Virus record (IMG/VR): IMGVR_UViG_2597490289_000004
Location: 1-64,000 of that record
Length of the DNA stretch: 64,000 bases
Strand: one strand, 5' to 3'
Origin: a virus
Lineage: Duplodnaviria; Caudoviricetes
Below the pieces are notes generated by a model, which was not told where the DNA came from, did no database searches, and saw nothing but the letters and a program-made list of their open reading frames with translations. The position numbers were made by a program, and so were the translations under genes. This document shows, one piece after another, positions 4,292 to 63,233 of this stretch (within the stretch, counting starts at the first letter, position 1; the number at the start of each line of letters is the position of its first letter).

Positions 4292-4510
4292 AATAAGTAA
4301 GAGGTATCCAGTAAAACTCACCCCTTGTTTTATAAGATACCTTGGTTATTTTCTCATAAATTCTCATTACCCTTTTATACAATAGTTAAAATACTCTGTA
4401 TTAACCGAATATCTAAGTTTATACTTGGATGTCTTGTAGGTAATATGGAGTATTTTTGTTTGCTATTAAATAGTATATTTTGTATAATTATGGTATATAG
4501 GAGGGGAAAA

Positions 4511-29510: not shown

Positions 29511-29598
29511 TTCGCAATAGGAATATAGGATGTAAAAGTAATAATTTAATAAATTAGGCAATAATATGACTGTAAAAGGTCTTTTTTTATTGTTCTAA

Positions 29599-45792: not shown

Positions 45793-45811
45793 ATGACAAA
45801 TGTAATACATA

Positions 45812-47278
45812 TTAAATAGTAATTTTATTTTTATATGGATCATATTGCAAATTAGTAAATATCAGTTTTAGAATTCTATTTTTCTCTTTTGTAGACTTTA
45901 ACTTGTTAAATTCAATTATTTTATTATAAATAAATTCTGAGCTAGTATCATTAGCTTTTTTTTGCATTTCTAAAAGTTTCTCAATTTCTATTTTGTTTTT
46001 TATTTCATTATTTCTTTGTGTAAGTTCCTCAATTTTTTCTATAAAAATTTTAGAGGCTTCAGTACTCAATAAAGCAACTTTTTCAACCAAACCATTTATT
46101 GCATTATTGTTTTTATTAAGTTGTTTTTCTAAATTTGATATATTTGACTCTCTGCCTTCTTTGGGATCAGAAAATAATTTTTTAAATATATCTTTATTTT
46201 CTAGCTGTTTAAGGAACTGAGATATTTTTTCTTCAAGTAAATCAGCTTTTATGTATTTCTTATTTTTACATTTCTCTTTTGATTTATCTATTCCAGTCTT
46301 GGTTCTGTTTATTCTATTTTGACACACATAATATCTAACTTTATTTGATTGGGAAAGTTGATAATAACCTCCACAATAAGGGCATTTTAATACAGAAGAT
46401 AAAAAATTAACTTCACTTGTATTTTTAAATTGCTCTTTTCTTTCATCAAGTTGCATTTGCACTTTCAACCATATGTTTGAATCTAAAACACCAATATGCT
46501 TTCCGACAATAGCAATAGGGGTATTATTTATTTTCCCATATGTCATATATCCACTTTTATTATCAACTTGCCCTATAACTTCATACCCCTTTGATTTTAA
46601 ATAATTAGTTACTTCCTTGGAGGATTTTACATATATAGGGTTCCTTAAAACTTTTCTATACCCCTCCCTACTAATTGTGATTCCTTTTTCTTTTAAAAAT
46701 TTGTATCCAAGAAATAAACTTCCATTATCTAAATATGAGTTGAAATATGAATGTATTAAATCAGAATCAATTATTTGTAAGCAACTTTTTTTGTTTTCTT
46801 TTATAATTTTACATCCCTTTGGAACAGTACCACCAGTATAATAACCTTTTCTAGCTAATTGCAACATATTATCTTTTACACGTTCAGCAATAGTTTCTCT
46901 TTCTAACTGTGCAAACACAGAAGCTATATAAATCATAGCTCTGCCCATTGGCGTGCTTGTATCAAATTGTTCTTTAATACTTATAAAAGTAACATTATAC
47001 TTTTGTAACAATTCCAATGTTGATGAAAAATCTGCTACATTTCTACTTATTCTATCTAGCCTATAGCAAATCAGTGCATCAAACTTATTCATTTTACATT
47101 CTAATATCAATCTTTTAAATGCTGGCCTATTTATATTTTTCCCTGAATAGCCTTCATCTTCGAATATTTCATATTCGTTATCACCTTTAAAATAGGTTTT
47201 GCATAAATTTATTTGAGTTTTTATACTTTCAGAGTTTTCAACATAAACAGATTTTCTTGTATATATAGCTATTCTCAT
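45812..47278 (-). CDS. Large serine recombinase (integrase)
   Basis: IYTRKS, DEGYSG...RP, RLDRISRN, recombinase domain and Zn ribbon (CPYCG). Confidence 0.95.
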   Translation of the reverse strand: MRIAIYTRKSVYVENSESIKTQINLCKTYFKGDNEYEIFEDEGYSGKNINRPAFKRLILECKMNKFDALICYRLDRISRNVADFSSTLELLQKYNVTFISIKEQFDTSTPMGRAMIYIASVFAQLERETIAERVKDNMLQLARKGYYTGGTVPKGCKIIKENKKSCLQIIDSDLIHSYFNSYLDNGSLFLGYKFLKEKGITISREGYRKVLRNPIYVKSSKEVTNYLKSKGYEVIGQVDNKSGYMTYGKINNTPIAIVGKHIGVLDSNIWLKVQMQLDERKEQFKNTSEVNFLSSVLKCPYCGGYYQLSQSNKVRYYVCQNRINRTKTGIDKSKEKCKNKKYIKADLLEEKISQFLKQLENKDIFKKLFSDPKEGRESNISNLEKQLNKNNNAINGLVEKVALLSTEASKIFIEKIEELTQRNNEIKNKIEIEKLLEMQKKANDTSSEFIYNKIIEFNKLKSTKEKNRILKLIFTNLQYDPYKNKITI

Positions 47279-47637
47279 TATTTTTTCCCTTTCTTTAAAA
47301 TCTCAATTTCTGTTTTTACCATATTTAATATCATATCGTGTGTATTTTGGTCTATGTTATTTGAATCAGTGATTACTCCACTTTCAACTAAAAATTCTAA
47401 AAAGTTACTTACTAAAGTTTCTCTTTCAACTGTTGCAGTTTTCTCTGTAAGGCCTTCTAAATAGTCCATGCTTACATTGAAATATTGAGCAACCTTTTTT
47501 GTTAATTCTCTTCCACCATCCTGTTGACTGCTTTCTATCATACCTATGAGGCTTCTAGATACTCCTAGCTCTTTTGCAAGCTGTTGTTGAGTTATATTAT
47601 TTTCATTCCTTAATTTTTTTAATATATCTGCTTTCAT
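47278..47637 (-). CDS. CI-like XRE repressor
   Basis: TQQQLAKELGVSRS.IG.IE; start reassigned to ATG 47637 after AAGGAG. Confidence 0.85.
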   Translation of the reverse strand: MKADILKKLRNENNITQQQLAKELGVSRSLIGMIESSQQDGGRELTKKVAQYFNVSMDYLEGLTEKTATVERETLVSNFLEFLVESGVITDSNNIDQNTHDMILNMVKTEIEILKKGKK

Positions 47638-47694
47638 TTTTACTAAAATCTCCTTATCACATAAAATCATATATAATGACCATAAACAAAATAT

Positions 47695-47868
47695 TATCAC
47701 AAATAGTGACAAAATAAAAGAGAACATATATTCTAAAATGAAATAATTTGGATTAATTTTTATTAAATAAATGCTATAAAAGGTTAATTTTTCTAGGTCA
47801 CTCTGTATGACTTTATATGACCTAATACGGGAAAATACAAGGGTTGAGAGATGTCACTTATTGTGACA
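47695..47868. promoter_or_regulatory. Repressor operators (TCAC-N5-RTGAC)
   Basis: TATCACAAATAGTGACA at 47695, GGTCACTCTGTATGACT at 47796, TGTCACTTATTGTGACA at 47852. Confidence 0.65.
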
Positions 47869-47900
47869 TAATAAAAACATCAGCTACGGGAGGTGAGTAG

Positions 47901-48131
47901 GTGTTTAAAGAACTAAGAAAGAAGACAGGCTATAGTACAGAACATGTAGCCAAATTATTAAAAATAAATAAATGGACACTTTATAAATTTGAAGAATATC
48001 ATTTGTTGCCTTCAATAAAAATTTTACTAGGAATGCGTGGAATTTACAACTGTTCTTATGAAGAAATTATGCAATCTTATGAATTTGCGAAAGGAGTTTA
48101 TAATGAGAGACGAATTAACAAGACAAGTTAA
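47901..48131 (+). CDS. Cro-like HTH protein
   Basis: XRE HTH divergent from the repressor. Confidence 0.8.
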   Translation: MFKELRKKTGYSTEHVAKLLKINKWTLYKFEEYHLLPSIKILLGMRGIYNCSYEEIMQSYEFAKGVYNERRINKTS

Positions 48132-48555
48132 AAATTTAGATTTAACAGAAATCAAAATGGTTTTTGGTAATGTTGAAAAAGTTCTACTTCAGCAAAAGAT
48201 AATTAATAAATATGGAGAAAATTTAATTGTTAGAAATTCCTGATACTAAAAACTCAATTGTTTTAACAAAAAATCAATATCCAGATTTGCCTTTTGATGA
48301 AGTAGAAATAAATAATCCAAAAGAATTTAAGGAAAAAATAAATCTTTATCATAAACTTATGGTTGAAGCTTATTATAGAGGAAGTTTTACAACAGAATCA
48401 GAATAAGAGGTCGCAGACCAATAACTTAATTTAATTCTTAACATAACAATTTTAAAGACAAGCACATCTAAAGCTCAAAAAGCAATTACATCTAGTAATT
48501 TTCAGCTTAAGAGTAGTAGAAAGTAAATAACAAGCTAATTTAAGGAGGAGAATAT

Positions 48556-49308
48556 ATGGATAAAAAAGTTTTACAAGTATCTCAAATTGGAGATAAAACA
48601 AAATTATTTAAGGATACAGAATTAAAATTCCGAGTTAGAACAATTCAAAATAATAATGGAAGTATTTTAGTTAGTGCTGAAGATACTGCTATTGGATTTG
48701 GATGGACAAAGACAGAGAATAAAGGAACTAAACAATATACATCTATTAGATGGGAAACAATTAATAACTATTGCAAGGATTTAGGCTTCGACAACAAGTT
48801 GGCGAAAGAAGATTACATTCCAGAAAGTCTATTTTATATGCTAGGAATGAAAGCGAATAATAAAGTAGCTCAAGATTTTCAAAGGTGGCTAGCAGTTGAT
48901 GTAATACCTTCTATAAGAAAAACAGGAGCATACCAAATGCCTAAAATGTCAAAGGAGTTACAAGCAATATTTGCAATCGATGAAAGAACAGTTGAATTAG
49001 ACAGCAGAATTACCAAATTAGAAAATAATACAACAATAGATTATTCACAACAGGAAGAATTAAGAACTCTTGGAACTAAAAAAGTAGTTGCAATTTTAGG
49101 TGGAACAGATGCACCAGCATATAAAGAACTTAATAAGAAGGTATTCAGCAGTTTTTGGAGAGATTATAAAAGAAAACTTGAAGTTAATTCATATAAGAAT
49201 ACATTAGTAAAAGATTTTGAAACAGGAAAACAAGCTATCATAAATTGGTGTCCAAGCAAGGAAGTATCTTTTATGATTAGAGGTTGTAATGCTCAAATGA
49301 GAATGTAA
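48556..49308 (+). CDS. BRO-N/ORF6C antirepressor
   Basis: FQRWL..DVIPSIRKTGAY; shares MSKELQAIF with 437-1201. Confidence 0.8.
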   Translation: MDKKVLQVSQIGDKTKLFKDTELKFRVRTIQNNNGSILVSAEDTAIGFGWTKTENKGTKQYTSIRWETINNYCKDLGFDNKLAKEDYIPESLFYMLGMKANNKVAQDFQRWLAVDVIPSIRKTGAYQMPKMSKELQAIFAIDERTVELDSRITKLENNTTIDYSQQEELRTLGTKKVVAILGGTDAPAYKELNKKVFSSFWRDYKRKLEVNSYKNTLVKDFETGKQAIINWCPSKEVSFMIRGCNAQMRM

Positions 49309-49373
49309 GATAAGAGACTTTATATTAAATCTTTTATCTTAACATAATAACAGAATTGTAAGGAGGAATAAAC

Positions 49374-49916
49374 ATGATACGAATAATTAACAATACATTA
49401 TATCTAAATGATGGTACTTTTTATAACTTAAGCAATACAAGTAAAAAAAGAGTTTTGCAAGGATTAAATTCTCAATTACAAGAAGGAAGTTTGACCAAAA
49501 CTGAATATAATCAATGCCTAGAATTAATTTCAATGAGTAAAAAAGAAGAATTAAAAAGATTAGAGGAAGTATGTAAACCAGTAGTGGATTATTTAAAAAA
49601 GAATTATGATCCACATTGCGCAGTAGTTATTACAGATAGTCAAATAAGATTAGTTAGAGATGAAATAGATATTCCAGTAGGAACTGCTCAAGAAGTACCA
49701 GTTCAAGAGCAGCCAAAAGTAACATTTGATTATTTTATAGATAAACCATCAAAAGTAATTTTAACTAATGATGAAGTCCTATATAAAAACTTAATAAAAA
49801 ATTATAGAACTATTTATATGTTTGGACCTGAACTTAATAAAGGTAATAATTCAGATCATACTTTATCAATTAGCACTAATGATTATCGTTTGGTTCAAAT
49901 CCCGTTGGATAAATAG
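49374..49916 (+). CDS. Hypothetical phage protein
   Basis: AAGGAGG RBS; long ORF. Confidence 0.55.
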   Translation: MIRIINNTLYLNDGTFYNLSNTSKKRVLQGLNSQLQEGSLTKTEYNQCLELISMSKKEELKRLEEVCKPVVDYLKKNYDPHCAVVITDSQIRLVRDEIDIPVGTAQEVPVQEQPKVTFDYFIDKPSKVILTNDEVLYKNLIKNYRTIYMFGPELNKGNNSDHTLSISTNDYRLVQIPLDK

Positions 49917-50097
49917 GATTACCTTTTGATGATAACCAACCAAGTTGAGTGAATTGAACTTCATTTAAATTTAAATTACCTATAATATCCCATCCAACTT
50001 TAACAAATTCATTAATATGTTTATTAACACTAGATTTGTTAAGTTTAGTAGATTGGAAAATATGATAATTTAGATAACCTTCAACATTAGGAAACAT
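49876..50097 (-). CDS. Small hypothetical protein, inverted orientation
   Basis: AAGGGGGTG RBS before MFPNVEG. Confidence 0.55.
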   Translation of the reverse strand: MFPNVEGYLNYHIFQSTKLNKSSVNKHINEFVKVGWDIIGNLNLNEVQFTQLGWLSSKGNPIYPTGFEPNDNH

Positions 50098-50168
50098 AAA
50101 AACACCCCCTTTCAACATAATTTTACCATATGTTAGGGGAAATAAAAAATATTAGGAGGAATGTAAAA

Positions 50169-50423
50169 ATGAAATCAACAGGCATTGTAAGAAAAATGGA
50201 CGAGTTAGGAAGGGTAGTAATACCAATGGAACTAAGAAGGAACTTAAATATTGCTGAAAAGGATGCATTAGAAATTTATGTAGAAGGAGATAACATAATT
50301 TTAAAAAAGTATACTCCTGGATGTTTTATCTGCCAAGAGATTGATAATTTGGTTATTATTCCGGATTCAAAAGTTAAGATTTGTCCAAAATGTTTAGCTA
50401 AATTAAGAAGTAAGCTACTTTAA
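50169..50423 (+). CDS. abrB: AbrB-family regulator with C-terminal Zn ribbon
   Basis: MKSTGIVRKMDELGRVVIPMELRR; CxxC...CxxC. Confidence 0.88.
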   Translation: MKSTGIVRKMDELGRVVIPMELRRNLNIAEKDALEIYVEGDNIILKKYTPGCFICQEIDNLVIIPDSKVKICPKCLAKLRSKLL

Positions 50424-50812
50424 GGAGGATTAACATGGAAGATGTAAATTTGTATGTAAACTTGCTTTCTAAGAAGAGACATAAGGTATCTATTGTAAAG
50501 AGAATAGTAAAAAGGATTTTAGGGTTATGAATAATCCAAGAAAGTTAAATAACAGACACAAAAGATTCTTAAGTGAACAGGGATATAATCCAAAAGATTT
50601 TTTAATAGTGAGTGAGGGATATGACTATTATACATTTTACAGTAAAACTATTAAGAAGGTATTTGATATGAGGAGGTAGTAATGGGGAAGTTAGCAGATT
50701 ATGCAGAGCAATCAAAAGAAGTAGAAAGGTTAGTTCAAGATGAAAGATACAGCATAGAAGAAGCTTTAAAAATTGTAAAAGAAAAATATTCAAGCAAGGA
50801 GGAAGAAAGGCA

Positions 50813-51321
50813 ATGAAGGAGAACTGGTTTGCATTATACCTAGCTGTAGTTGGAGAAAAAAGTTTAGATACTGCTTTAGGAATAATGGGAATAAGACCTA
50901 AAAGAGAATATATTAAAAACTCCAATTTAAAGTTAGATAATAGCGCAGTTAAATTAATAGAATTTCTTAAACTAGAGCATACATGGGAAGAAATAGGAGA
51001 AATGTGTGGAGTTAAAGGAGATTATTTAAGAAACAAGGTTAAAAATTATAAAGCTACCAAGAACTCCGACCAAAGCGTTCCTAGTAGCACAGCAAAATTT
51101 TCAATTTCATTATACCACAAAACTGGAGGTGTGCAATGGTAAGTATTAAAAGATTTGAACAAAAGTCAGCGATAGTTAATTCAATAGTTGAAGATATAGT
51201 ACATGCCTTACCGGACAACGAAATTGCTGAGGAGTTAGAAAATAATTTTGGTGAACTCTATAGTATGATTTTAGGTTTGTGTGAAACCTTAGGTGTATTA
51301 AATTCAGATATTGAGAAATAA
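50813..51321 (+). CDS. Two hypothetical proteins (50813-51142, 51136-51321)
   Basis: RBS-bearing ORFs in the early operon. Confidence 0.6.
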
Positions 51322-51338
51322 ATAAGGAGGATTTTATT

Positions 51339-51851
51339 ATGGAAAATACATTATTAAAACAATATTTGCAAGAAGAAAGAAGAGAAAGTTTTAAAATAGA
51401 AAATTTAGAAGGTGCTACATGGGCTTTTAGAAAATTAAGAGCTATTGGAACTAAGAAAGCAGAAGTTGAAGCTGTAGCAGCCGAGGAAATTGCACGAATC
51501 GAAGCTTGGAAGCAAGAACAGCTAAAACAATATGATGATGATACAGAGTTCTTTGAAGGTTGCATAAGCGTTTATTTTGTAGAAGAAAGAGCAAAGGATA
51601 AAAAGTTTAAATTATCTACACCGTATGGAAAAGTAAGTAGTAGAAAATCTAAGAAGTGGATTTATGAAGATGAAGCAGCACTTAAGGAATATGTAAAGGA
51701 AAATGAAATAGAAGCTATTAGAGTTAAAGAGGAACTTGATAAAACAGTTCTTAAAAAGATATGCAAAGATGGAGTTAATACTGAAACTGGTGAAATACTT
51801 CCAGGAGTAAGAATTGAAGAAACTGAGACTATTGAAGTTAAAGCAGAATAG
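51339..51851 (+). CDS. Mu Gam-like host-nuclease inhibitor
   Basis: A.WA.RKL, TPYGKV..RK and ETGEILPGV motifs. Confidence 0.8.
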   Translation: MENTLLKQYLQEERRESFKIENLEGATWAFRKLRAIGTKKAEVEAVAAEEIARIEAWKQEQLKQYDDDTEFFEGCISVYFVEERAKDKKFKLSTPYGKVSSRKSKKWIYEDEAALKEYVKENEIEAIRVKEELDKTVLKKICKDGVNTETGEILPGVRIEETETIEVKAE

Positions 51852-51866
51852 AGAGGTGAGAATTTA

Positions 51867-52433
51867 ATGGAGCTAACAAATCAAGTAAATAATAATAATT
51901 CAGATTTATGGAAATCTTTTATAGAATTTCAAAAAGACTTTAAAGGAATGCAACCAGATGCAACAAATCCCTTTTTTAAGTCATCATATATAACTTTAGA
52001 TGGGATTTTAGAAACTGTAAGACCATTATTAGCTAAACATGGACTTGCAGTACTACAAGAAGCAAAGGGAGTAGATGGTTCAGTAACGATAAAAACAAGA
52101 CTAGTTCATGAAAGCGGACAATATTATGAAACAGACATTTTAGAAATGAAACCTCAGAAAGCTAATGATCCCCAACAAATGGGTTCATGTATAACTTATT
52201 CAAAAAGGTATCAATTGGCAGCATTACTTGGAATTTGTGAAAGTGTAGATGATGATGGGAATACAGCCACATATGGCAATGGCAAATCACCTAATTCTAA
52301 TAAAAATGATAATTCAGCAAAATCATATAAATGTGTATCATGTGGAAATGAAGTCACAGAAAAGGTGGCCAAGTTCAGTTATTCAAAGCATAAGAAAATA
52401 CTTTGTATGGATTGTCAAAAGAAAGAAAAATAA
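51867..52433 (+). CDS. ERF-family ssDNA annealing protein
   Basis: NPFFKS.Y, L.HESGQ and GS.ITY.KRY.L....G...DDDG motifs. Confidence 0.9.
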   Translation: MELTNQVNNNNSDLWKSFIEFQKDFKGMQPDATNPFFKSSYITLDGILETVRPLLAKHGLAVLQEAKGVDGSVTIKTRLVHESGQYYETDILEMKPQKANDPQQMGSCITYSKRYQLAALLGICESVDDDGNTATYGNGKSPNSNKNDNSAKSYKCVSCGNEVTEKVAKFSYSKHKKILCMDCQKKEK

Positions 52434-52444
52434 AGGGTGATTAA

Positions 52445-53314
52445 ATGGCACAAAGAAGGATGTTTAGTCTAAAAGTAATTGATACAGATATGTTTTTAGA
52501 TATGCCACAATCAGCAAGGCTATTATATTACGACCTTTCTATGAGAGCAGATGATGATGGATTTGTAGCTTCACCTAAGAAGATACAAAGAATGATAGGA
52601 TGCTCAGATGATGATTTCAAGATATTAATAGCTAAGAGATTCTTAATTCCATTTGAGAGTGGTGTATGTGTTATAAAGCATTGGAGAATACACAATTATA
52701 TTCGTGCAGATAGGTACGTAGAAACTATTTATAAAGATGAAAAACAAGAGTTAATTGAAGAAAATGGACAATATGAAGTTATACAAAAAGCTAATGACAT
52801 ACCAAATGTCATACCAACGGTTTCCAATTTGTCAACGCAAATGGATACACAGGTTAGGTTAGGTAAGGTTAGGTTAGAGTTAGGTAAGGATAGTATAGAT
52901 AATACAACTAAAGTTGTAAGTAGTACTAAAGTACAACCCATAACATCAAAATGGAATGAATTAGGCTTACAAAAGCTTATTTCTATAAATAAAGGTACTA
53001 ATAGATACAAATTACTTCAAGCGAGAATTAAAGAGTATGGAGAGGAAAAGGTATTACAAGCTATAGAGAACATTAAAGATAGTAGTTTCTTAAAAGGTCA
53101 GAACGGTAAAAGCTGGACAATAACTTTTGATTGGCTAATAAAACCTAATAATTTTGTAAAAGTTCTTGAAGGAAATTACAAAGACAAAGAAATACAGTCT
53201 CAGCAACCAAATAAAAATAGAAAGTCATCATTAAGGTTTGACAATTTTGAAGCAAGGGATTATGACTATGATTCCTTAGAAAAGAAATTATTAGGATGGG
53301 ATGAAAGTAATTAA
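52445..53314 (+). CDS. Replication initiator (replisome organiser)
   Basis: MAQRRMFS, RADDDGF and KHW.IHN; FDWL..NNF.KVLEGNY C-domain; internal AGGTT repeats at about 52850-52890. Confidence 0.85.
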   Translation: MAQRRMFSLKVIDTDMFLDMPQSARLLYYDLSMRADDDGFVASPKKIQRMIGCSDDDFKILIAKRFLIPFESGVCVIKHWRIHNYIRADRYVETIYKDEKQELIEENGQYEVIQKANDIPNVIPTVSNLSTQMDTQVRLGKVRLELGKDSIDNTTKVVSSTKVQPITSKWNELGLQKLISINKGTNRYKLLQARIKEYGEEKVLQAIENIKDSSFLKGQNGKSWTITFDWLIKPNNFVKVLEGNYKDKEIQSQQPNKNRKSSLRFDNFEARDYDYDSLEKKLLGWDESN

Positions 53315-53338
53315 AAATTATAGATTGAGGTGATTAAT

Positions 53339-53488
53339 TTGAAATTTAAAGAGCTTAAGTCAGATTGCAATAAAGTTGATGTATTAATAAACAAGTGGTT
53401 AAAGGAAAATCCAAGCGTAAAAGTTATGGATGTTAATTATACAGCTAACAATTTTGGAAGTCATGTGTTAATTAGTTATGAGGAGTAA
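53339..53488 (+). CDS. 49-aa hypothetical protein, not in the ORF track
   Basis: GAGGTGA RBS, TTG start. Confidence 0.55.
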   Translation: MKFKELKSDCNKVDVLINKWLKENPSVKVMDVNYTANNFGSHVLISYEE

Positions 53489-56373
53489 TTCATTATTGTC
53501 AGATATTGTGAAGTGAAGGAGATGTTTTTATGAAAAATAAACATGCAGGTATGATTAAAGGGTTTACTCAATTATCAAAAGCATGGTATGGAGAACCAAG
53601 TTTAAGAGGTGCTGATTATATAGACTCAGTACATTTTGGGTTCTATGGCACAGAAGGCGGAACAACTGGCGAAGTTTCGGTTAAGTGGATAAACCTAAGT
53701 GGTAAAATAGTACCACAATTAACTATTTTTAGTGACACTTGGAGTGCTTTATCTCAATTTCATGATTTAATTGATTTATTAGGTAAACATGATAATGAAG
53801 ACCCTACTCCAGAGCAATTTTGTAAATTTTTATTACACTGTGGCTTTGTAGATAGGACTGAAACTGTTAGAAGTTAATTCGTAATGTGTAAATATTAAAT
53901 AGTTTTTGTAAGCTTAAAATAATTGGAAATGTATATCAAAATTCAGAATTATTAAAGTAAGTCAGAAAGGGTGAAGAATGTGGAAATTAATAATGAAATA
54001 AAAGAAATATTTAAAGATCATAAAGCACACTTTAGAGATTTAGGAGAAGTTCAAATATTAGATTGGAAAATAGATAATACGTTTTGTTGCTCTATAAGAT
54101 ATATTTTTGATAGCGACAAACTATATATTTCAGGTGATTATGGTTGTGCTGTTTACTGGTTGACATGGAATGGAACACCACAAAGTTTTAAAGGTATTAA
54201 TTTAGGATATTTTTATGAAAAGAATGCAGCACATGAATATGATGAATATGAATTTAATGATAAGAAAGCTAGAGAAGATATAGAAGATTACTTAAGCTTT
54301 ATGTTTGAAGATTATGAAAATGCAAAAGAAGGTCATGAGGAAGAAATAAAAGATATTGAAAAAGAAATAGCTGAATTAGACAGAGGAGATTATGATTCAG
54401 ATGAAGATTTTCAAGATGCTAAAGAAAATTTAAGACAGGATATTGACTATTATAAAGCTTTAATACAAGAAGAATATATAGCAGAAGAAATCGAAAAGAA
54501 AGAACGTATAAAGCAGGATTTATTAAATTTAGTTAATGAATCTTCTAGTTTAAGCCAATGGAATTACTATGTAGCAGAATCTAATGTAACTGATGATTTG
54601 CAAGAGTATGATTATGATTATTGGGAATGGATAAGTGAAGTTGGAAAAGCAATACCAGAAAGAGCAGAGCTGCATTTAGCTGGATTAATAATGGCAGCAG
54701 AGCAATTAGAAGAAATTGAGGTAAAGAATTATGAAGTTTAAAATTGAAGTAGATGAAACAAGAAGTTTTAGACATGAATTTGTAGTTGAAGCAGAGAATG
54801 CAGATAAATTAGATTCTATTTTAGATAAGATTGAATCTGAAAGAATGCTTGGAATAAATGATTATGAGTGCCTATTAGAAGAAAATGGATTAAAAATTAT
54901 AGAAAGTGTAAGAGATGAAGATGGAGATCTTGGAGAAATTGAATGTACTGATATAGAGGATTTTGAAGAAGATTAGAAAGGGTGAAAGAAGTTGAAGTTA
55001 AAAGACTTAAGATGTGTTTTGAGTTCACAAATGGTTGATATAAACTTAGATTTTTTGGACACTAGAACTTTTGTACAAGAAGATTATTCAGAAGATAATG
55101 AGTATTTAGGACAAGATGAAAGTGAAAGCATGTGGGATTTATATGGAGAAAAAGAAGTAGAACAAATATATGCTGAAGATTCGGAACGTATAAATATAGA
55201 TTTAGGGGGAGAAGTCAATGAGTAAAAATATACAAGATTTAATTAATTACCTTGAAGCAGTAAAAGCAGAAAGTGGAAATTATACAGAAGTTAGAGTTGA
55301 TGGATGCGTTGTAGAAGAATTTGAAGATTATATAGAAGTAGATCATGTAAAAGACTATGTTGATTTTGTAACACCTAGCAGAATTTAGGTGAGAGCATGA
55401 AAAAATTATTCGTTAAATACAATGATGGAAGTGGTACAACTTATACTATGGAAAATCGTGTAGATCATGAGAAATATGTATATAAACACATTAATGTTCC
55501 TGGGATAGAATCAATAATTTTACAACAATATCCTAAATCAAAGTATGAGCCAGTTGTTTATATATATCATGGATTTTGTAAAGATGGGCAGAAGGAAATG
55601 TTGAAATACGATATTGATTGGTATTTAGCATTTCAAGGGAATGTAAGTACATCTCTTATAAACAGATTAACAAATACATTAGGGTTAGATGAACATGATG
55701 CAGTACCTTATAGTAATGCTGATTTAACTTATAAAATTAAAAGAAGTTTAGATATAATGATGCCTGTAATTTTAACAAAATGTATAGGGCATAAGATAGA
55801 TGCTTTTAGAGATTGTGGAGTTAATAAATTTATAATTAAAATATCAAATTAAATTAGCAATATGCAGAAGGTGAATTTATAAAAAGCAAAAATGGCGAAT
55901 AAATGAGGTGTGGATATGTTCGGTTTAATGTATAAATTATCAGTAAAGTTTCTGATATGGGACTTAAAAAGATTGGGTATAAATGATTTAGAAATAGTAA
56001 TTAGAAGTGATGGAAAGACAGTTTATAAAAGAAATAAAGAAAGAGAAAAAAGCATTAAAAGAACATTAGATTTAATAAGGTAATTCACAATATGTAGAAA
56101 GGACGAAGCAAAATGACATTAGCTATGAAGATAAATAGAAAATTTACTAAGTGGAGATTGGAAAATACATTTACTCGAAAAGAAAGGCTTAAATGTAAAA
56201 AAGACGCTAATAGAACTATAAAAAAAATCAAAAAGTGGAGAAAACTAATGAAGAATAAAAGCTTTGGAATTATAAATGAAGTTAATTGTAAGGCAATAAT
56301 AAGATTAGCAAATAGGGGAAATAAATCGCAAAGAGAATTAAAAAGTTAGTTCACAATACTAAGCCAGGATGAA
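53489..56373 (+). repeat. Array of 24-bp putative recombination sites at gene boundaries (53489, 53878, 53952, 55854, 55876, 56084, 56350)
   Basis: 8-8-8 imperfect palindromes, five of them within 1 nt of a stop codon; further copies at 28362, 29511, 61600 and 61860. Confidence 0.65.
53530..56349 (+). CDS. Variable small genes (53530-53877, 53971-54741, 54731-54976, 54992-55225, 55218-55388, 55397-55852, 55916-56083, 56113-56349)
   Basis: Co-oriented ORFs with RBSs; no family recognised. Confidence 0.7.
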
Positions 56374-56459
56374 AGACTGAATAGAGAATGAAGCTGCAGC
56401 TATAGTTGTAAAACTTCATTCTCAATAAATAATCAATTTCACAAGGGGAGGAAAGAATA

Positions 56460-57467
56460 ATGAGCAACTTAAACGAAGAAGTATCGATAAAATTAGTGGG
56501 AAAATTAACATTGTTATTACCTTTTTTAGAACAGAAATTAGATATGCAACTGGAAGTTAAGAAAGTTATAGATGAGACTTTGTATAACTATGAAGTACAA
56601 ACTAAGTGTACAGATTTAGTTTGCAGTGATATAGAAGAAAAGGCTCAGCTATACCTTGCATGTAAGAAACTAGAAGGTTTAAGCAATAAGACATTATATA
56701 ATTACAAATTGTTTCTTAATAAGCTAGACCAGTATTTTACTAAACCATGTAGCACAATTGCAACAATGGACTTAAGAATGTTTCTAGGATTATTAGGAAA
56801 AGGGAAACAAGCTAGTACTATTAATGGGTATATCACTTATTTAAAGAACTTTTTCGGATGGTTGCAGAATGAGGAATATATAATTAAAAATCCTGCCTTT
56901 AAATTAAAGCAAACTAAAGTTCCTCGAGTAATTTTACAGGGATATAAGGCAGAAAACTTAGAGAAATTAAGAGAAGCCTGTAAAACGGAAAGGGAAAAAT
57001 GTCTTTTTGAACTATTAGATTCTACAGCTTGTAGAATATCTGAGATAGATAATATTACTTTAGATGATATTAATTGGTCCGAGCAGAGTATAAAAGTCAC
57101 TGGAAAAGGAAATGCACAAAGAATAGTTTATTTTTCTACTAAAGCTAAATTGCATATTCAGCAGTATATAAGTACAAGAAAAGGAGAATCAAACTATTTG
57201 TTTATATCAGAAAAAGCACCATATCAAGCAATAGGTACAAGAGCTTTGCAACTAATTATAAAAAAGATAAAAGATAGGACAAATGTAACAGAAAGGGTTC
57301 ATGCGCATAAGTTTAGAAGGACTCAGGCGACTAGGCTATTAAATAGTGGAATGAGGATTGAAGGAGTACAAGGTATATTAGGACATACTACTCCAACTAC
57401 AACTCAGATTTATGCACAACTTTCACAAGAAAATTTGAAAAATGAATATAGAAGATTAGTAGTTTAA
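56460..57467 (+). CDS. XerD-like tyrosine recombinase
   Basis: Intact R (ACRISE), K (GKGN), HxxR (HKFRR), H (LGH) and Y (TQIYA). Confidence 0.93.
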   Translation: MSNLNEEVSIKLVGKLTLLLPFLEQKLDMQLEVKKVIDETLYNYEVQTKCTDLVCSDIEEKAQLYLACKKLEGLSNKTLYNYKLFLNKLDQYFTKPCSTIATMDLRMFLGLLGKGKQASTINGYITYLKNFFGWLQNEEYIIKNPAFKLKQTKVPRVILQGYKAENLEKLREACKTEREKCLFELLDSTACRISEIDNITLDDINWSEQSIKVTGKGNAQRIVYFSTKAKLHIQQYISTRKGESNYLFISEKAPYQAIGTRALQLIIKKIKDRTNVTERVHAHKFRRTQATRLLNSGMRIEGVQGILGHTTPTTTQIYAQLSQENLKNEYRRLVV

Positions 57468-57497
57468 ATTTATTAATAATAGAAAGGAAGAATAAAA

Positions 57498-58682
57498 ATG
57501 GAAAACATAATTAATTTAGAAAAGTTTGCTGAAGGAGCATTAGCTGAAAAAGTTAATATTGCACTTAAGGAGGTATTAAGTAATATAGCAGATCCTAATA
57601 CAGATTGGAAAACAAAAAGAAAATTAACAATAGATATTACATTTGAATCACAAGAAGATAGACAATTAGCTTTATTGGATATTAAAACAAAGAAAAAGCT
57701 TGCAGAGCCAAAGAGTATTGGGACAAGAATTATTATAGATACAGATGGAAAAGGTGGAATATTAGCTTCAGAATATAAAAAGCAAATTCCAGGACAATCA
57801 ACAATGAGAGTTGATGAAGAAACTGGAGAAATAGTAACAACTGCAGAAGAAAAAGCAAATGATCTAATAGACTTAAATGGTATCAAATTAGTTAAATAAT
57901 TAAATCTATATAGCCATGGCAAGGGGCTTAAACCTTGCACATTAATTAAGAAAAGGTGGAAATAAAAAATGAGAGAACAAGAAGCATTACAATACTTAGT
58001 ACAATTAGGAGAAGAAAGTGAACCAATAATTGAATTAGATCAAGGAACTTATTCAAGAGTTGATTTAAATAGAGTTAAACAACCAAAGGCACAAGGATTA
58101 AGCATTAGTACATTAACAGGATTCGTAGATTACATTAAGAGCAATATAGATGCAATAGACACTAAATTATTAATACATGTTGCATCACATAAAAGAGTTG
58201 ACTTATATGGACCATTAAATGCAGATAGAGAAAGAGAATGTTATTTAGTAGCAGGAGCAGAGCTACCAACTAATATTAGATATGAGCAATTTTTAGATAC
58301 AGAGCAATTTAATATTATGTTACAAAGTTCATTTTCAGATAAAGGGGACAAGGAAGTTTTATTAAAATATACAGGACTTGTGAGAGATGAAGCTGTAAAA
58401 ACTACTGGTGATGATGGAATAAGTCAAAAGGTAACAGTAAAAACAGGAGTTGCAAGTGTAGCTGAAGCTGTAGTACCTAATCCAGTAAGTTTAGCACCAT
58501 ATAGAACATTCCCAGAGATAGAACAACCTTTAAGTAAATTTATATTTAGAATGAAAGATGGTCCAAGAGCAGCAATTTTTGAAGCTGATGGAGGGGCATG
58601 GAGAAATACAGCTATATTAAGAATTAAAGAATACTTAAAGGAAGCACTAAAAGAAAATGAAAACATTGAAATAATAGCATAG
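57498..58682 (+). CDS. Conserved phage gene pair (57498-57899; 57969-58682)
   Basis: NIADPNT..K.KRK; L.PYRTF.E..QP and FEADGGAW motifs. Confidence 0.7.
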
Positions 58683-58725
58683 GAAAATGGGAGGGGTAAA
58701 ACTCTCCTAGAAAAAAGGAGAAGAT

Positions 58726-59217
58726 ATGGCTAAGAATTCAGGAAAAATATTTGAAGAAGATATAAAAAACTCAATACCTAAAAATCAAGATTTCTTTTAT
58801 TACAGATTTATAGATAATGCAGCTTCATTTAGTGGTGGAGATAATGTCAGATTCACTTCACACAACCTATGTGACTGCATGACAATGACAAAGGATAAAT
58901 TATACCTTATGGAATTAAAAACCCATACAGGGGCAAGCTTACCACTATCATGCATAAGGGAAAATCAAATAGATGGTATGGCAAAGATAAATCATCCAAA
59001 TATGAAAGCAATATTTATTATTAACTTTAGAGAAAAAGAAAAAACTTATGCGATAGAAGCAGATAAATTAGAAAAATATATACAAACATCTAAAAGAAAA
59101 AGTATTCCCATTAGTTTCTTAGAAGAATGTGGAGTTGAAATAATAGGTACTAAGAAAAAAGTACATTACAGATATGATTTAGAAAAGTATTTTGAGGAGG
59201 ACAATGATAATGAATAA
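58726..59217 (+). CDS. recU: RecU-family resolvase
   Basis: Paralog of 1356-1856 (GKIFEED, MELKT). Confidence 0.75.
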   Translation: MAKNSGKIFEEDIKNSIPKNQDFFYYRFIDNAASFSGGDNVRFTSHNLCDCMTMTKDKLYLMELKTHTGASLPLSCIRENQIDGMAKINHPNMKAIFIINFREKEKTYAIEADKLEKYIQTSKRKSIPISFLEECGVEIIGTKKKVHYRYDLEKYFEEDNDNE

Positions 59218-59623
59218 AGTGGTATTAATAGGAAGATTAACAAAGGATCCAGAACTAAAATTTACACCAGGAGCAGGAACAGCAGTTACTACATTAACAT
59301 TAGCAGTTGATAAGTATAATTCTAAATCTGGTCAAAAAGAAGCGGACTTTGTACCTGTAGTTGTATGGGGTAAACAAGCTGAAAGCACAGCAAATTACAT
59401 GGTCAAGGGTAGTCAAATGGCTATAAGTGGAAGAATACAAACTAGGAACTATGAAGCTAAAGACGGTACTAAGAGATACGTTACAGAAGTAGTTGCTACA
59501 GAAGTTCAGTTCTTAAGTAAATCAAATGATTCAAGTGGCGGAAATACATCATCTAGTCCTTTTGATAGTGGAAACTTTGAGGCAGATATAAATCCTGTGG
59601 ATGATGGAGATTGTCCTTTCTAG
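59210..59623 (+). CDS. ssb: Single-stranded DNA-binding protein
   Basis: MNKVVLIGRLTKDPEL...GRIQTRNY...DDGDCPF. Confidence 0.95.
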   Translation: MNKVVLIGRLTKDPELKFTPGAGTAVTTLTLAVDKYNSKSGQKEADFVPVVVWGKQAESTANYMVKGSQMAISGRIQTRNYEAKDGTKRYVTEVVATEVQFLSKSNDSSGGNTSSSPFDSGNFEADINPVDDGDCPF

Positions 59624-59632
59624 AAGGCAATT

Positions 59633-59833
59633 ATGAGTAAATATCTTTGGGTAGCAGTAAGCCCAGATAAGTATGAACTTCCACTAGTAGTTGAAGATAC
59701 ATCTAAAAAACTAGCAGATAAATTGAAAGTAACTGATGGATGTATAAGAGCATCGGAATATAATTATAGAAAAAGAAACAAGGGAAAGTATGAATCAAAA
59801 TGTGATATAAGGATAATTAAGATTTTAAGATAA
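59633..59833 (+). CDS. Hypothetical phage protein
   Basis: DKYELPL motif. Confidence 0.6.
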   Translation: MSKYLWVAVSPDKYELPLVVEDTSKKLADKLKVTDGCIRASEYNYRKRNKGKYESKCDIRIIKILR

Positions 59834-59920
59834 CTAAATAGAGAATAAGAGCAAATAGCAATATGGTTATAAGTTCTTATTCTCAAATAAAAATCAATTT
59901 CAAGAGAGGGAGTAATAAAA

Positions 59921-60172
59921 ATGAAGGATTATGTAGAAAATAGGGTAAAGGAAGTAGCTGAATTTACAGTAGAAACTAAATCTACTGTAAGAAATACTGC
60001 AAAAACATTTATGTATTCAAAATCTACAATATATAAAGATTTAACAGAACGTTTAAGTAATATAGATCCAGTTTTATATAACCAAGTACACAGCGTATTA
60101 GTAGAAAATAAATCTCAAAGACATATTAGAGGTGGAAAGGCTACTCAAAGTAAATTTAAGGGGTTGATGTAG
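59921..60172 (+). CDS. spoIIID: SpoIIID homolog (phage-encoded)
   Basis: MKDY.E.RV...TVR..AK.F..SKSTI.KDLTERL...NK..RHIRGG.AT. Confidence 0.9.
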   Translation: MKDYVENRVKEVAEFTVETKSTVRNTAKTFMYSKSTIYKDLTERLSNIDPVLYNQVHSVLVENKSQRHIRGGKATQSKFKGLM

Positions 60173-60900
60173 TGGAAAAATTGAATTTAAGTATACAACT
60201 TAAAAATATAGACTTAACAGAAATAAATATAGTTGAGCAAATGAATAAATCTGATGAAGAAAGAAAAGAGCTTGAGGATGCAATTTTATTATATACAACT
60301 AAGAAAAGTAACAATGAAGATAAACAAGAAATTGAAAATGAAAGAAATCATGTTATAGAGGAATTTTGGGACACAGTACAATCAAACTTAGGAGTATTAG
60401 ATAAGTTAGGAATAAATGCACAAGAAGTAATGGAAGGTTATTCTAAGCATTTAGTTAAGTTGGAAGATAGACCTAGAGTTAAGGAGGATTAGTTAATGGA
60501 ATATATAAGTGAAGAACAATTTTTAAAACAACCTAAGGAAATTCAAAAAGTGTTTATTGATTGGTGGAAACCAAGCACAGGGGATTTGTTTATAGATATA
60601 TCAAAAATAGATTCAGATGTTGATATTGTTTATTGTGTCCCTATTAATAACAAGCATTTTGAAAACTATAACGGTGAGATACATTATAAAATAGATTCTA
60701 TTCCTTTATTAAGTGAAGGACAACTTAGAAAGTGTATTGAGGATAAGACAAATTGTTATATAAGTTGTTCACCAACATATAAATGTGATGGATATGATAT
60801 TACTATTTTAGGAATTGTAGAAGATACTTACACTATTAAAACAGATAATTTACTTGAAGCCTATTGGAAAGTAGCTTGTGAAATTGCAAAGGAGGAATAA
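60172..60900 (+). CDS. MazG-like protein (60172-60492) and hypothetical protein (60496-60900)
   Basis: EE..EL...IEEFWD MazG-like acidic pattern. Confidence 0.55.
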
Positions 60901-60903
60901 CTT

Positions 60904-61053
60904 ATGTCTCCAAAAGAATTAGCAGAAAAAACAATTAGAGATATAGCAGCTAGGAGAGAAAGAGCTGATAGAGAATTTTATGCTTATCAAAAAGAAAGTG
61001 GAGTAAGAAGAAAAAAATCTTCTAATGTAAGATACGGTGGATATAGGTGGTAA
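60904..61053 (+). CDS. 49-aa basic protein, homolog of 1213-1362
   Basis: MSPKELAEKTIRDIAARRER...GGYRW; AGGAGG RBS. Confidence 0.75.
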   Translation: MSPKELAEKTIRDIAARRERADREFYAYQKESGVRRKKSSNVRYGGYRW

Positions 61054-61077
61054 TCCTAATAAATTAGGAGGGATAGG

Positions 61078-61602
61078 ATGCAAAAATATAAAAGAATACT
61101 TTATAAGGAAACAGAAGATAAATTATATAAATACTTCAATAGAGATAGAATATATAGAGGCTTGAATAGTCAATTAATTGTATTAAATAAACAGATAGAT
61201 CAACTAAACAATGAACTAAAAGATTGCAAGTATATCAATGTAGATGAGGAATCATCATCACCAAGTTTTGACGAAAGAGTACAAACATCATCTAGTTGTA
61301 CAAGTTATGTTGAAAGCCAAGTAATTAAATTAACAGATATGAAGTTAAGAAGAAAAGAAAAAAAGGAACTGGAAAGAGAAAATATATTAAGTCAATTAGG
61401 TGATCTTGAATCAATAGTAGTAGAAATGGAATGGAAAGTAGGACAACTTAGGGACAATTATAAAAAAATGCTTTCCATGGTATATAAGGACAACATGAAT
61501 GAAGTTCAAATATCTTTTAAATTGCATCTAAGCCAAAGCCAAGTGAATAAGAGAAAGAATAAGATACTAGAGCATATATTCATGTGGGAGAAATGGAATT
61601 AG
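61078..61602 (+). CDS. Late transcriptional activator (ArpU/RinA-like)
   Basis: Paralog of 2897-3418 (ERVQ.S..SY.E); C-terminal HTH. Confidence 0.7.
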   Translation: MQKYKRILYKETEDKLYKYFNRDRIYRGLNSQLIVLNKQIDQLNNELKDCKYINVDEESSSPSFDERVQTSSSCTSYVESQVIKLTDMKLRRKEKKELERENILSQLGDLESIVVEMEWKVGQLRDNYKKMLSMVYKDNMNEVQISFKLHLSQSQVNKRKNKILEHIFMWEKWN

Positions 61603-61628
61603 GTAATATGTATAAAGTGTGAAGGAGA

Positions 61629-62039
61629 GTGATAAATTTGAAAAATAAAAATCTAAGTGTAAATAAAGAATTATCTTTGAAAGAAAAAATTGAATATGTA
61701 AATGAATTAGGAGGAAAAGACCCTACATTAAACCTTTTAATAAACTTAGAAAATCAAGGATTAGGTAATATATCTGTAACTGAAATATTAGATTCTATAG
61801 CAACTAATACAAAAGTTGAATTACCAAATAGAAAACGTAGTTTGATAATAGAATAATCCTACGCAATACTAAGTTAATATGAGGTGGATATGAAGAAAAA
61901 TGAAATATTAAAGGAAATTGATAAGAAGATACAATTTATTGAAAAGCAACAAGGAACATTAGAATCATATCAAATTGGAATGATATATGGATTAAAATTA
62001 GCTAAAGAAACTGTAAAAGAGTTTAAACGAGGAAAGTGA
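61629..62039 (+). CDS. Two small hypothetical proteins (61629-61856, 61890-62039)
   Basis: RBS-bearing ORFs; the first is flanked by 24-bp sites. Confidence 0.6.
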
Positions 62040-62045
62040 AACCAT

Positions 62046-62099
62046 GGAATAAAAAAGGAATAAAAGAAGAATAATTTTCTAAGATTAAAGCTTTAAAAT
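62046..62099 (+). promoter_or_regulatory. Late promoter of prophage 2: three RGAATAA repeats plus TAAAAT
   Basis: Repeats at 62046, 62057 and 62068; -10 at 62094 (+26). Confidence 0.7.
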
Positions 62100-62338
62100 A
62101 GTAAGTGTAAAGAATTAAATTTAAACCTCTCATAAATTTAAAATACCCTGTATTACTTAGGTTGTATGGGGTATTTTTGTTATGTTTATAGACCAGTAGG
62201 GTTTTATCCTCCTAATTAATTTAAATGTGAAAGGTAGGTGTAAACCTCCAGACACAATATATAGTACATCAACTCTACTGGTTTTATTTGTTATATATTA
62301 GAAAATAATGTATAATAATCGAGAAAGTGGGGTTAAAC

Positions 62339-62503
62339 ATGATTAAAAGCGAATATGGAACATTGAAAACAGCAGTGGAGCCAAATAAAATAAAAACTCA
62401 GGTAAAAAGAGAAAATAAAATAATGACACAAGTAAAAAGTGATAAAATAAAAACCCAAGTTAAAGGGGATAGAATAAGAACTCGAAGAATAAAGGAACTC
62501 TAG
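62339..62503 (+). CDS. 54-aa repeat peptide (KIKTQVK repeats)
   Basis: TGTATAAT upstream, GTGGGG RBS, terminator overlapping the stop. Confidence 0.55.
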   Translation: MIKSEYGTLKTAVEPNKIKTQVKRENKIMTQVKSDKIKTQVKGDRIRTRRIKEL

Positions 62504-62549
62504 AAATAGGGTTCCTTTTTAATGCAATAAATTGAGGTGATAAAGCTAT

Positions 62550-63233
62550 GTGAAATGTGATAGAAATAAACTTAAAGATATACTTAAGGTTAATTTAAAT
62601 ACTTTAAAGCAGATAGAAAGAAGAAACAATCTACAGATAAGACTTAAAAAGATTGGTTATGATCTCGTAGATAAGCACAAAGAAAAAAATAAGTATATCT
62701 ATGAGATAAAGAAAACTACTGATGAATCATACAAGAAACTTAAAAGTATAATCAGCAGTACTTATAACTCTAATAGAGCAGATAAGTTTGTAACCTACTT
62801 TAATATAAGAACATTAGAAGAACCTAACACAGTAAGAGATATTGCAACAGCATCTGATGTTACAGAAAAAACAATAATAAAGTGGGATAATACTCTCCAA
62901 GATAAAAGAATACTTTCAAAAGATGGTTATTACTACTTTAGATTATGCAAAGATACTAGAGAAGTACAACAATGCACTATAGAAGAATACAAATCTTTCT
63001 GGAAGAACAAAGCTTATATAAATGCTTTTTATCAACTCCAAAGCAAATACATGAATGGAGAAATAACACTTACAGAGTTGCGGTTAGCTTCAGGAGAAAT
63101 AGCTGTAATAATAAGTACTATAGAAAATAAGTATTACTTCAAGGTTAAAAAATATAAAGTTAATAAGGAAAATGAGTTATACATGGAAACTAAGAATTTA
63201 ATAGATGAAATAGAAACTAGAGCATTGGAATAA
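62550..63233 (+). CDS. Putative DNA-binding protein
   Basis: HTH-like TVRDIA..SDVTEKTIIKW; N-domain shared with the next ORF. Confidence 0.65.
   Translation: MKCDRNKLKDILKVNLNTLKQIERRNNLQIRLKKIGYDLVDKHKEKNKYIYEIKKTTDESYKKLKSIISSTYNSNRADKFVTYFNIRTLEEPNTVRDIATASDVTEKTIIKWDNTLQDKRILSKDGYYYFRLCKDTREVQQCTIEEYKSFWKNKAYINAFYQLQSKYMNGEITLTELRLASGEIAVIISTIENKYYFKVKKYKVNKENELYMETKNLIDEIETRALE

Follow-up and report, generated by a model that had tools for sequence, protein, structure and literature searches.

Short conserved sequences at the mosaic junctions of temperate phages are the subject of the boundary-sequence, or modular-exchange, model. In the part of PMC3029335 concerned with this model, a short sequence is repeated at gene borders, modules end in it, and the presumed agents of exchange there are recombination enzymes, either general ones or those of the phage. 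In T4-type phages, repeated regulatory cassettes (PeSL) mediate shuffling; as outlined in the PeSL account of PMC2839356, the repeats flank small non-essential genes in a hyperplastic region, and single genes are deleted, replaced or circularised when neighbouring copies recombine. Here, we analyzed positions 1 to 64,000 of IMG/VR virus record IMGVR_UViG_2597490289_000004 (Duplodnaviria; Caudoviricetes), a stretch of 64,000 nt referred to below as the window. It includes a row of nine small plus-strand open reading frames (ORFs) at 53330-56349, followed by a tyrosine recombinase gene at 56460-57467. A preliminary description had read 24-nt sites between these genes as 8-nt arms around an 8-nt spacer, bound by the recombinase, and the row as a phage analogue of integrons or pdif modules. 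We report that the region is a cassette-like mosaic, not an integron-like recombinase system, and that the linkers of this long early operon fairly probably serve homology-driven exchange of single genes.

In integrons, each cassette carries at its 3' end an attC site, an imperfectly palindromic, hairpin-forming sequence of about 55-140 nt, and the integrase stands with attI and a promoter at the head of the array, usually in divergent orientation. The locus resembles an integron in that a one-orientation row of unrelated, mostly promoterless small genes lies beside a tyrosine recombinase. It differs in having no IntI signature and no attC-type hairpin sites, in an enzyme gene that is 3' and co-directional, in collinear gene order, and in the existence of arrays without the enzyme. 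The pdif sites of Acinetobacter plasmids are 28 bp long (11-6-11), alternate in orientation and are served by host XerC/XerD. Genes bounded by short Xer-type sites, in different contexts, are a feature shared with pdif and dif modules, whereas the sites here are 8-8-8, all direct on one strand and only weakly symmetrical (about 5 outer nt).

Phages with plasmid prophages often carry Xer-like recombinases thought to resolve dimers, as stated in the portion of PMC8026635 on these enzymes. The present phage, likewise tailed and temperate, shares with them a simple XerC/D-like recombinase that accompanies or replaces an integration enzyme; in contrast to them, its prophage appears to be integrated by a serine recombinase, and its Xer-like enzyme lies below the NCBIfam Xer cut-offs. 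PeSL comprises an early promoter and a terminator stem-loop, according to the same PeSL account (PMC2839356), whereas the linker here is a translation-level element inside one transcription unit. A further comparison is with the boundary-linker model (PMC3029335, in the part cited above). The same short sequence was found at the borders of non-homologous modules, with breakpoints within it or at its edge, and the linkers look like conserved boundary linkers, an already known kind. The differences are that one defined family (stop codon, octamer, extended ribosome site) is present in up to a dozen copies per operon, and that we infer exchange from sequence.

Results

A family of intercistronic linkers

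The 24-nt sites belong to a real family of intercistronic linkers. A full linker comprises an upstream stop codon, a gap of 0-5 nt, an octamer (consensus TTCGCAAT) and a purine tract (nAGAAAGGRYGWAG; AGAAAGGGTG-like). The octamer, in the left half, was observed as TTCGCAAT, TTCACAAT, TACGCAAT and TTCATTAT. The right half, which covers spacer positions 4-8 and the former right arm, is the purine tract AGAAAGGRYGWAG. Many junctions carry this purine half alone, immediately after the stop codon. Because the tract ends 5-9 nt ahead of the start codon at 53952, 54974, 56084 and most junctions of the related loci L002 and L048, it is probably, in the usual case, the extended ribosome-binding site of the next gene. 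The sequence AGAAAGG...GGTGA is presumably complementary to the 3' end of Firmicute 16S rRNA; the record contains no rRNA gene. The earlier proposal that right arms double as the ribosome-binding site of the next gene thus applies to most sites, and does not apply to 53489, 56350 and 29511.

A sequence-only profile, R1 (consensus TAATTCGCAATAnTnAGAnAGGGTGAAGnAA), was built from 20 aligned linker copies. With the recombinase protein as the query, 34 related viral loci and 11 bacterial-genome loci were obtained, the close ones all from Clostridium; the nearest genomes were uncultured Clostridium MAGs, Candidatus C. helianthi and C. puniceum. R1 gave 60 matches at E up to 1 in 37 loci; ten were training copies and 50 were others, against about one expected. 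Most of these 50 (41) were located upstream of the recombinase or its remnant on its strand, three were downstream, four were in L107 and two were in the recombinase-less locus L048. The four L107 matches are on the strand of that record's recombinase homologue, if L107 keeps the record orientation. The 11 bacterial-genome loci gave 12 matches, all on the plus strand and 11 of them upstream, confined to L155-L158 and L162. The motif AGAAAGGRYG had 26 matches in 15 of the 34 loci of relatives, again all on the plus strand. In L002, L003 and L048, the same junction type was found between genes unrelated to those of the window.

An exact 14-mer (AGTCAGAAAGGGTG) was present in at least 116 stretches of viral contigs, mostly as single and probably chance copies; L041, L048, L107 and L109 had two copies. 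A 35-nt junction compared with isolated phage genomes gave a single chance-level match, in an Aeromonas phage (E = 4). A limited literature search found no published description of the linker motif by title or abstract. One R1 match (E 0.03) at 28360-28388, inside a 384-aa ORF (27877-29031) of the first prophage, may be due to chance.

In the window, the seven 24-nt strings listed in the preliminary description are present as written at 53489, 53878, 53952, 55854, 55876, 56084 and 56350. Five of them start 0-1 nt past an ORF stop, as had been noted (ORF ends 53488, 53877, 55852 with a 1-nt gap, 56083 and 56349). Spacer position 5, said to be A in 11 copies of which seven were listed, is A in all seven and near-invariant in the 20-site alignment. 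This A is part of the purine tract AGAAAGG, on a plus strand of about 42% A. Site 55876 gave no R1 match at E up to 10, and neither the right arm of 53878 nor the left arm of 53952 fitted the family profile. The array had been described as ending at the recombinase; R1 matches were also found downstream of it (61603 and 61859), in the other prophage (29508) and at position 86721 of the whole record.

The proposed inverted arms were not borne out. Complementary arm cells amounted to 60.6%, compared to 62.5% in column shuffles; 433 of 500 shuffles reached the observed value, and sliding the partner gave 39-56%. Symmetry was seen at the consensus level alone (TTCRC...GYGAA). No covariation between the site arms was detected in this pairing test against column shuffles and slid partners, and a hairpin reading of the sites was ruled out on the same ground. 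The 8-nt spacers of any two window sites differ; 53489 and 53952 have the 6-nt core GTCAGA in common.

The octamer TTCACAAT with up to one mismatch was not enriched in the window (113 observed, 129 expected). The stop codon plus octamer (TARTTCRYWAT) was observed six times against 2.31 expected, always on the plus strand; 3 of 100 shuffles reached six, and four of the six matches fall within 53486-56357. AGAAAGGRYG was observed three times against 0.6 expected, always inside the array. These patterns were taken from the sites themselves, which makes the window counts circular and post hoc; independent support comes from the relatives.

Gene replacement at linker junctions

The preliminary description of the row as unrelated small genes split by a recurring junction motif was confirmed, and relatives differ by whole-gene replacement, deletion and insertion ending at these junctions. 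Breakpoint positions were taken from the limits of BLAST matches and from a small number of alignments, with an uncertainty of several nt. L003 matched the window in four blocks (52400-53320, 53383-53513, 53961-55864 and 56344-57472); the genes between them are replaced, and L003 has well-formed linkers at the borders of the replaced genes. L002 has 53304-53502, a 28-nt linker piece and the recombinase block in common with the window. Contigs of public sequencing runs (X1, X5, X6 and X7) provided further variants. In the X6 contig, joints were found from 53503 to 54978 (with 612 other letters between), from 55230 to 56081 and from 56101 to 56372, the last of which drops exactly the gene between the 40-nt direct repeats D2. 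An X1 contig (record 5) has 56089-56362 with no mismatch to the window, placed between other flanks. At 53960-53961, where homology to L003 and to the X1, X5 and X7 contigs starts, three unlike upstream sequences join the same downstream gene.

Alignment of related sequences did not confine the breakpoints to the spacers, as had been predicted; they were spread over about 30 nt and not in one register. The range extended from 6 nt left of the site (a BLAST edge; about 3 nt into the left arm by alignment) to 3 nt right of it, and some breakpoints lay at the next start codon. Counted from the first base of each site, they were at 14, 15 and 25 for 53489, at 9-10 for 53952, at 11 for 55854, at -3, 6, 18 and 21 for 56084, and at -6, 6, 13, 18, 23 and 27 for 56350. 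Blocks common to L002 and the related record G012 take in linkers on both sides, which fits crossing-over anywhere inside repeated homologous linkers. The motif-less border at 57472, 5 nt past the recombinase stop, was a block edge in 6 of 10 relatives; further motif-less breakpoints were at 55230 (X6), 55384 (the X1 contig end), 56418 and 56446-56449.

Cassette shuffling, also part of the preliminary description, was not observed, as common genes keep their order among relatives. Gene order was collinear in the multi-block matches (L003, L002, L005, L008, the X6 contig and L002 compared with G012), with the single exception of a 118-nt match in G005 that is placed elsewhere.

Tyrosine recombinase and its coupling to the array

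The recombinase (56460-57467, plus strand; 335 aa with a 65-aa N-terminal extension) is XerA/C/D-like. It matched Phage_integrase (5.6e-35) and an N-terminal SAM-like domain, and no other PF00589 gene was found in the 98-kb record. As stated before, its catalytic centre is intact: all six catalytic residues, R-K-H-R-H-Y, align with Escherichia coli XerD chain 1a0p_A. The closest solved relatives were an archaeal XerC-like protein (3.6e-27) and E. coli XerD (4.6e-20). Although nearest to XerA, XerC and XerD, the protein stayed under every curated NCBIfam Xer cut-off (score/cut-off: XerA_Arch 204.5/220; XerC 170.7/335; XerD 155/329.6; XerS 85.5/267). Integron-integrase models were not reached, at 60.4 bits against 265 for TIGR02249 and 31.7 against 435 for NF011946.

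Arrays stand beside the recombinase in 30+ related records. G012 has 12 R1 matches in its array and 93% identity to window positions 57466-58700, and has no recombinase; 77 nt separate the end of its array locus L048 (about 5 nt past the stop of the last array gene) from the start of the downstream homology. Array-type linkers without a recombinase were also found in G011. In L031 (6410-6600) and L032 (8001-8190), the recombinase is internally deleted, with about 60 N-terminal codons joined to the last few codons; strong linkers are kept upstream and the downstream gene is normal. Linkers also lie 4 kb downstream of the recombinase (61603 and 61860) and in the late regions of both prophages. 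The late-region linkers at 29508-29590 and at 86721-86800 of the record (L154) are orthologous junctions after a small late gene; they belong to the TTCGCAAT family and are followed by a terminator-like hairpin with a T run. With arrays lacking the enzyme, scattered breakpoints and arms without dyad symmetry beyond column composition, the claim that the recombinase drives cassette exchange, with these sites as its core sites, was not supported.

Homologues of the recombinase at 40-41% identity were found in Clostridium phage phiCp-D (L035, 9001-9978) and Terrisporobacter phage TPELB_ph1 (L036, 8929-9924), between tail or tail-fibre and lysis (holin) genes; no motif was detected near either (best R1 E 0.34). 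One of these two phages also has a ParM gene, and the other has a second large integrase. In the Clostridium perfringens locus L161, where the recombinase has 62% identity, R1 gave no match. 'Spare' Xer-like recombinases of this kind recur in clostridial-type phages at varied genome positions.

The recombinase lies at the 3' end of the row. As with other cassettes, the left edge of its block varies (56344 to 56449) and the right edge is sharp. It appears to be one more exchangeable accessory gene in the row. We can only guess at its role: it might resolve circular replication or episomal forms in the manner of Xer enzymes, or act as a second integration function. In single-recombinase systems, a cognate dif-like site often adjoins the gene. 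No dif-like site turned up near the recombinase, where no dif consensus scan was made; the sole strong dyad nearby is a covarying 10-bp stem with a 20-nt loop.

Stem-loop elements at module starts

This stem belongs to an element present in two direct copies at 56376-56459 and 59836-59920 (plus strand), each with a 10-bp stem, a variable loop of 20-24 nt and a conserved AT-rich tail ending in a ribosome site. Copy A (stem 56386-56395 with 56416-56425) precedes the recombinase, and copy B precedes a SpoIIID-like gene (59921-60172). The outer GAGAAT/ATTCTC of the stem is conserved and the inner four pairs co-vary, with compensatory changes in 4 of 10 pairs among 10 sequences. The element might act in the processing or stabilisation of RNA, or be a regulatory site where modules start. 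It is unlikely to be the recombination site of the recombinase: it co-varies as a structure, it also precedes the SpoIIID-like gene, and a variant occurs in the recombinase-less G012. Rfam gave no family at the linkers or at the stem-loop element.

In a second group of loci (L010, L011, L026, L027 and L028), the place just upstream of the recombinase, at about 7895-7990 where the loci are anchored at 8001, is taken by another hairpin that is longer, with a stem of about 14 bp and a loop of about 25 nt; in L028 the stem sequence is another one and pairing is kept. In G012, a third hairpin-plus-tail variant (L153, 5233-5340) lies directly before the homologue of the window gene at 57498-57899, and therefore the recombinase looks inserted, or lost, between the regulatory element and the next gene.

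Organization of the row and the surrounding region

The window is part of a 98-kb provirus record in which the second prophage begins at a large serine recombinase (45812-47278, minus strand), as the preliminary description had reported. This gene lies beside the N-terminal half of a Prismane/hybrid-cluster-protein gene (44863-45798, model positions 1-265 of 513). The other half was not found in the 98-kb record, and the arrangement suggests that the prophage integrated into this gene. After the serine recombinase come a cI-like repressor, a Bro-N/ORF6C protein, a MazE/AbrB-like protein, a Gam-like protein (51339-51851; Pfam 2.1e-25) and an Erf single-strand annealing protein (51867-52433; 1.5e-26), both on the plus strand, then a replication gene with matches to DnaD-like genes in named phages, and the small-gene row. 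Past the row and the tyrosine recombinase lie two unknown genes, a RecU-like resolvase (58726-59217; Pfam 6.2e-12) and a single-strand DNA-binding protein, SSB (59192-59623; 5.2e-34), again on the plus strand, and the SpoIIID-like regulator (59921). Compared with isolated phages, the DNA of 52400-58000 gave matches confined to the replication gene and the gene after the recombinase. Neither promoter-like sites (78 against 90.6 expected) nor terminator-like sites (1 against 3.5) were in excess within 47000-63000, and therefore this region looks like one long early transcription unit.

No Pfam family was found for the nine small proteins, and four of the nine had weak or unnamed PHROG matches. 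The junctions of the row are 0-90 nt long and the motif 24-31 nt; about 4 of 10 junctions are without it. All features from here on are on the plus strand. The first small gene (53330-53488, 52 aa, weak match to PHROG 13248) forms with site 1 a piece, 53304-53513, that matches L002, L003 and the X5 and X6 run contigs. Linker 1 (53489-53512; R1 18.3 bits) is the most palindromic copy and is followed by a separate GAAGGAG ribosome site; its orthologue in L003 shows paired changes in both arms. The next gene (53530-53877, 115 aa, no family) is replaced by other DNA in L003 and the X6 contig. The linker at 53878-53901 (R1 10.2 bits, E 0.12) has the left octamer only, its right arm being off-family. 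A short-type linker, GTCAGAAAGGGTGAA, at 53952-53975 is the probable ribosome site of the following gene. That gene (53971-54741) matches PHROG 5051; its annotated GTG start at 53971 falls inside the ribosome-site tract, and the L003 alignment suggests GTG 53980 as the real start.

A gene matching PHROG 7934 (54731-54976) is followed by the short-type linker AGAAAGGGTG (54974-54991), which precedes the TTG start at 54992, is part of repeat D3 and contains the X6 breakpoint at 54978. Three small genes (54992-55225, 55218-55388 and 55397-55852) have motif-less junctions. The linker at 55854-55877 (R1 E 0.15) is where homology to L003 and the X7 contig ends, inside it at 55864; the claimed site at 55876-55899, already noted as lacking a profile match, is unsupported. 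A 57-aa gene without a family (55910-56083) leads to the best-scoring linker (56084-56107; R1 19.4 bits), which lies in a D2 repeat and whose right arm is the likely ribosome site of the next gene. The latter (56113-56349, 78 aa), between the D2 repeats, is absent from the X6 contig and is 100% identical elsewhere in X1. The linker at 56350-56373 is followed only by a 3-codon frame and forms the variable left edge of the recombinase block.

Outside the row, a linker-like junction (61603-61626; R1 E 0.077, non-training) directly follows the stop of ORF 61078-61602, and a further R1 linker (61860-61883) follows the stop of ORF 61629-61856. The R1 linker in the late region of the other prophage (29511-29534) precedes the terminator-like hairpin. 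The first prophage also contains a DUF3800-VIII RNA motif (RF03075) at 4390-4454, which scored 54.6 bits against a gathering score of 40.2 and was the sole Rfam match to reach that threshold.

Discussion

Our favoured explanation starts from an early operon without intrinsic terminators, of which the 24-nt sites would be the intercistronic linkers. Recurring between unrelated genes, the linker family would give 15-40 nt of shared sequence at many gene borders, and co-infecting or co-resident related phages could then swap single genes by homologous recombination within the linkers. We infer that Gam, Erf, RecU and SSB, all encoded by the phage, could be the enzymes behind this exchange, and selection would keep only the products with intact genes. 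Rad52-like phage recombinases, including an Erf, are described in the relevant part of PMC3945230 as driving mosaicism by relaxed homologous recombination on diverged substrates. A milder variant, which we put forward tentatively, is that the linkers are selfish hot spots for Erf-type annealing, with PeSL-like shuffling of single genes in temperate Clostridium phages.

Several points weigh against homology-driven exchange. A homology of 15-25 nt, and imperfect, is short for homologous recombination, and the exchanges were deduced from assembled contigs rather than observed directly. The R1 training copies were chosen by eye. Many of the loci are closely related to one another, and the match counts do not represent independent events. 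The purine tract does not appear to be a ribosome site only, because a separate AGGAGG follows the linker at 53489 of the window and at 2617, 3089 and 3366 of L048, and because no gene follows the linkers at 56350 and 29511. The linker reading gives the octamer no explained function. AGAAAGGRYG is restricted to the arrays and is not the general ribosome site of the record, which points to a shared origin or a dedicated function. Some breakpoints do lie in the spacer or at the edge of the left arm and spacer: 53960-53961 (four sources), 55864 (two), 53502-53503 (two) and the edge between L008 and G012. With match ends uncertain by several nt, a fixed crossover blurred by later divergence retains a small likelihood. 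The recombinase-less records G012 and G011 are 71% and 81% complete, and an enzyme might be supplied in trans by another prophage.

The linker may instead be primarily regulatory, acting on mRNA or DNA as a translational-repressor operator, an RNA-processing site or a transcription-factor site by the ribosome site; the breakpoints would then be a by-product of selection at gene borders and of shared sequence. We regard this as possible, at a rather low probability. The copies are restricted to the coding strand, where they lie between stop and start codons and overlap the ribosome site, and the octamer is kept even where a separate AGGAGG follows or where a terminator takes the place of a gene (29511 and 86721), in line with a regulatory signal; the limitation of the ribosome-site variant to arrays agrees with this as well. 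However, no regulator was found, and the nine small genes are without an informative family. The linkers gave no Rfam match and showed no hairpin covariation, and a signal of this sort is missing from about 4 of 10 junctions of the row. A regulatory role is compatible with homology-driven exchange, and could explain why the linkers are conserved.

It is improbable that the 8-8-8 sites are bound by the Xer-like recombinase for the excision, capture and shuffling of cassettes between directly oriented copies. The catalytically intact enzyme beside arrays in 30+ related records and the direct orientation of all sites would suit such a system, yet the late regions of both prophages and a position 4 kb downstream of the gene also contain linkers, arrays occur without the enzyme or with a deleted copy, and the homologues of phiCp-D, TPELB_ph1 and L161 are without the motif. 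The arms of Xer, Cre and Flp sites are 11-13 nt long, whereas those here are 8 nt, with symmetry in about 5 outer nt and no complementarity beyond column composition; the paired arm changes between 53489 and its L003 orthologue are an observation in favour. Classical tyrosine recombinases require matching overlap regions. The 8-nt spacers all differ, even if 53489 and 53952 have the core GTCAGA in common. Some breakpoints fall at the arm/spacer edge or within the spacer, and a natural variant lacks exactly the gene between 56084 and 56350; against this, breakpoints are scattered over about 30 nt and gene order is collinear. In addition, the protein reached 60.4 bits against the 265-bit integron-integrase cut-off, and its gene, the last of the row on the 3' side, is flanked by mosaic breakpoints of its own. 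The broader proposal that the linkers are dedicated 24-nt signals at which an Xer-like enzyme, acting in cis or supplied in trans by a co-resident prophage, would exchange single genes, as a tailed-phage counterpart of integron and dif-module systems, is equally doubtful.

That AT-rich intergenic DNA and ordinary ribosome-binding sites were merely picked by eye is least probable of all, despite the lack of enrichment of TTCACAAT with up to one mismatch, the off-family 55876 and parts of 53878 and 53952, and the post hoc window statistics, because R1 matches recur in viral relatives and bacterial-genome loci (50 non-training matches against about one expected, with strong strand and position bias in both sets) and copies in L003 and L048 are well formed where the flanking genes differ from those of the window.

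If homology-driven exchange within the linkers is correct, this region would be a clean natural example of the swapping of single accessory genes by temperate phages of Gram-positive anaerobes. With a linker repeated up to a dozen times, each junction would be a potential crossover for phage annealing and resolution enzymes, and the long-standing 'boundary sequence' model would become testable with many parallel junctions and sequenced relatives. The locus also cautions that a tyrosine recombinase beside a row of small genes need not mean an integron analogue. The linker would further be a practical marker of a hyperplastic region that gathers unknown early genes, among which, speculatively, anti-defence genes may be included.

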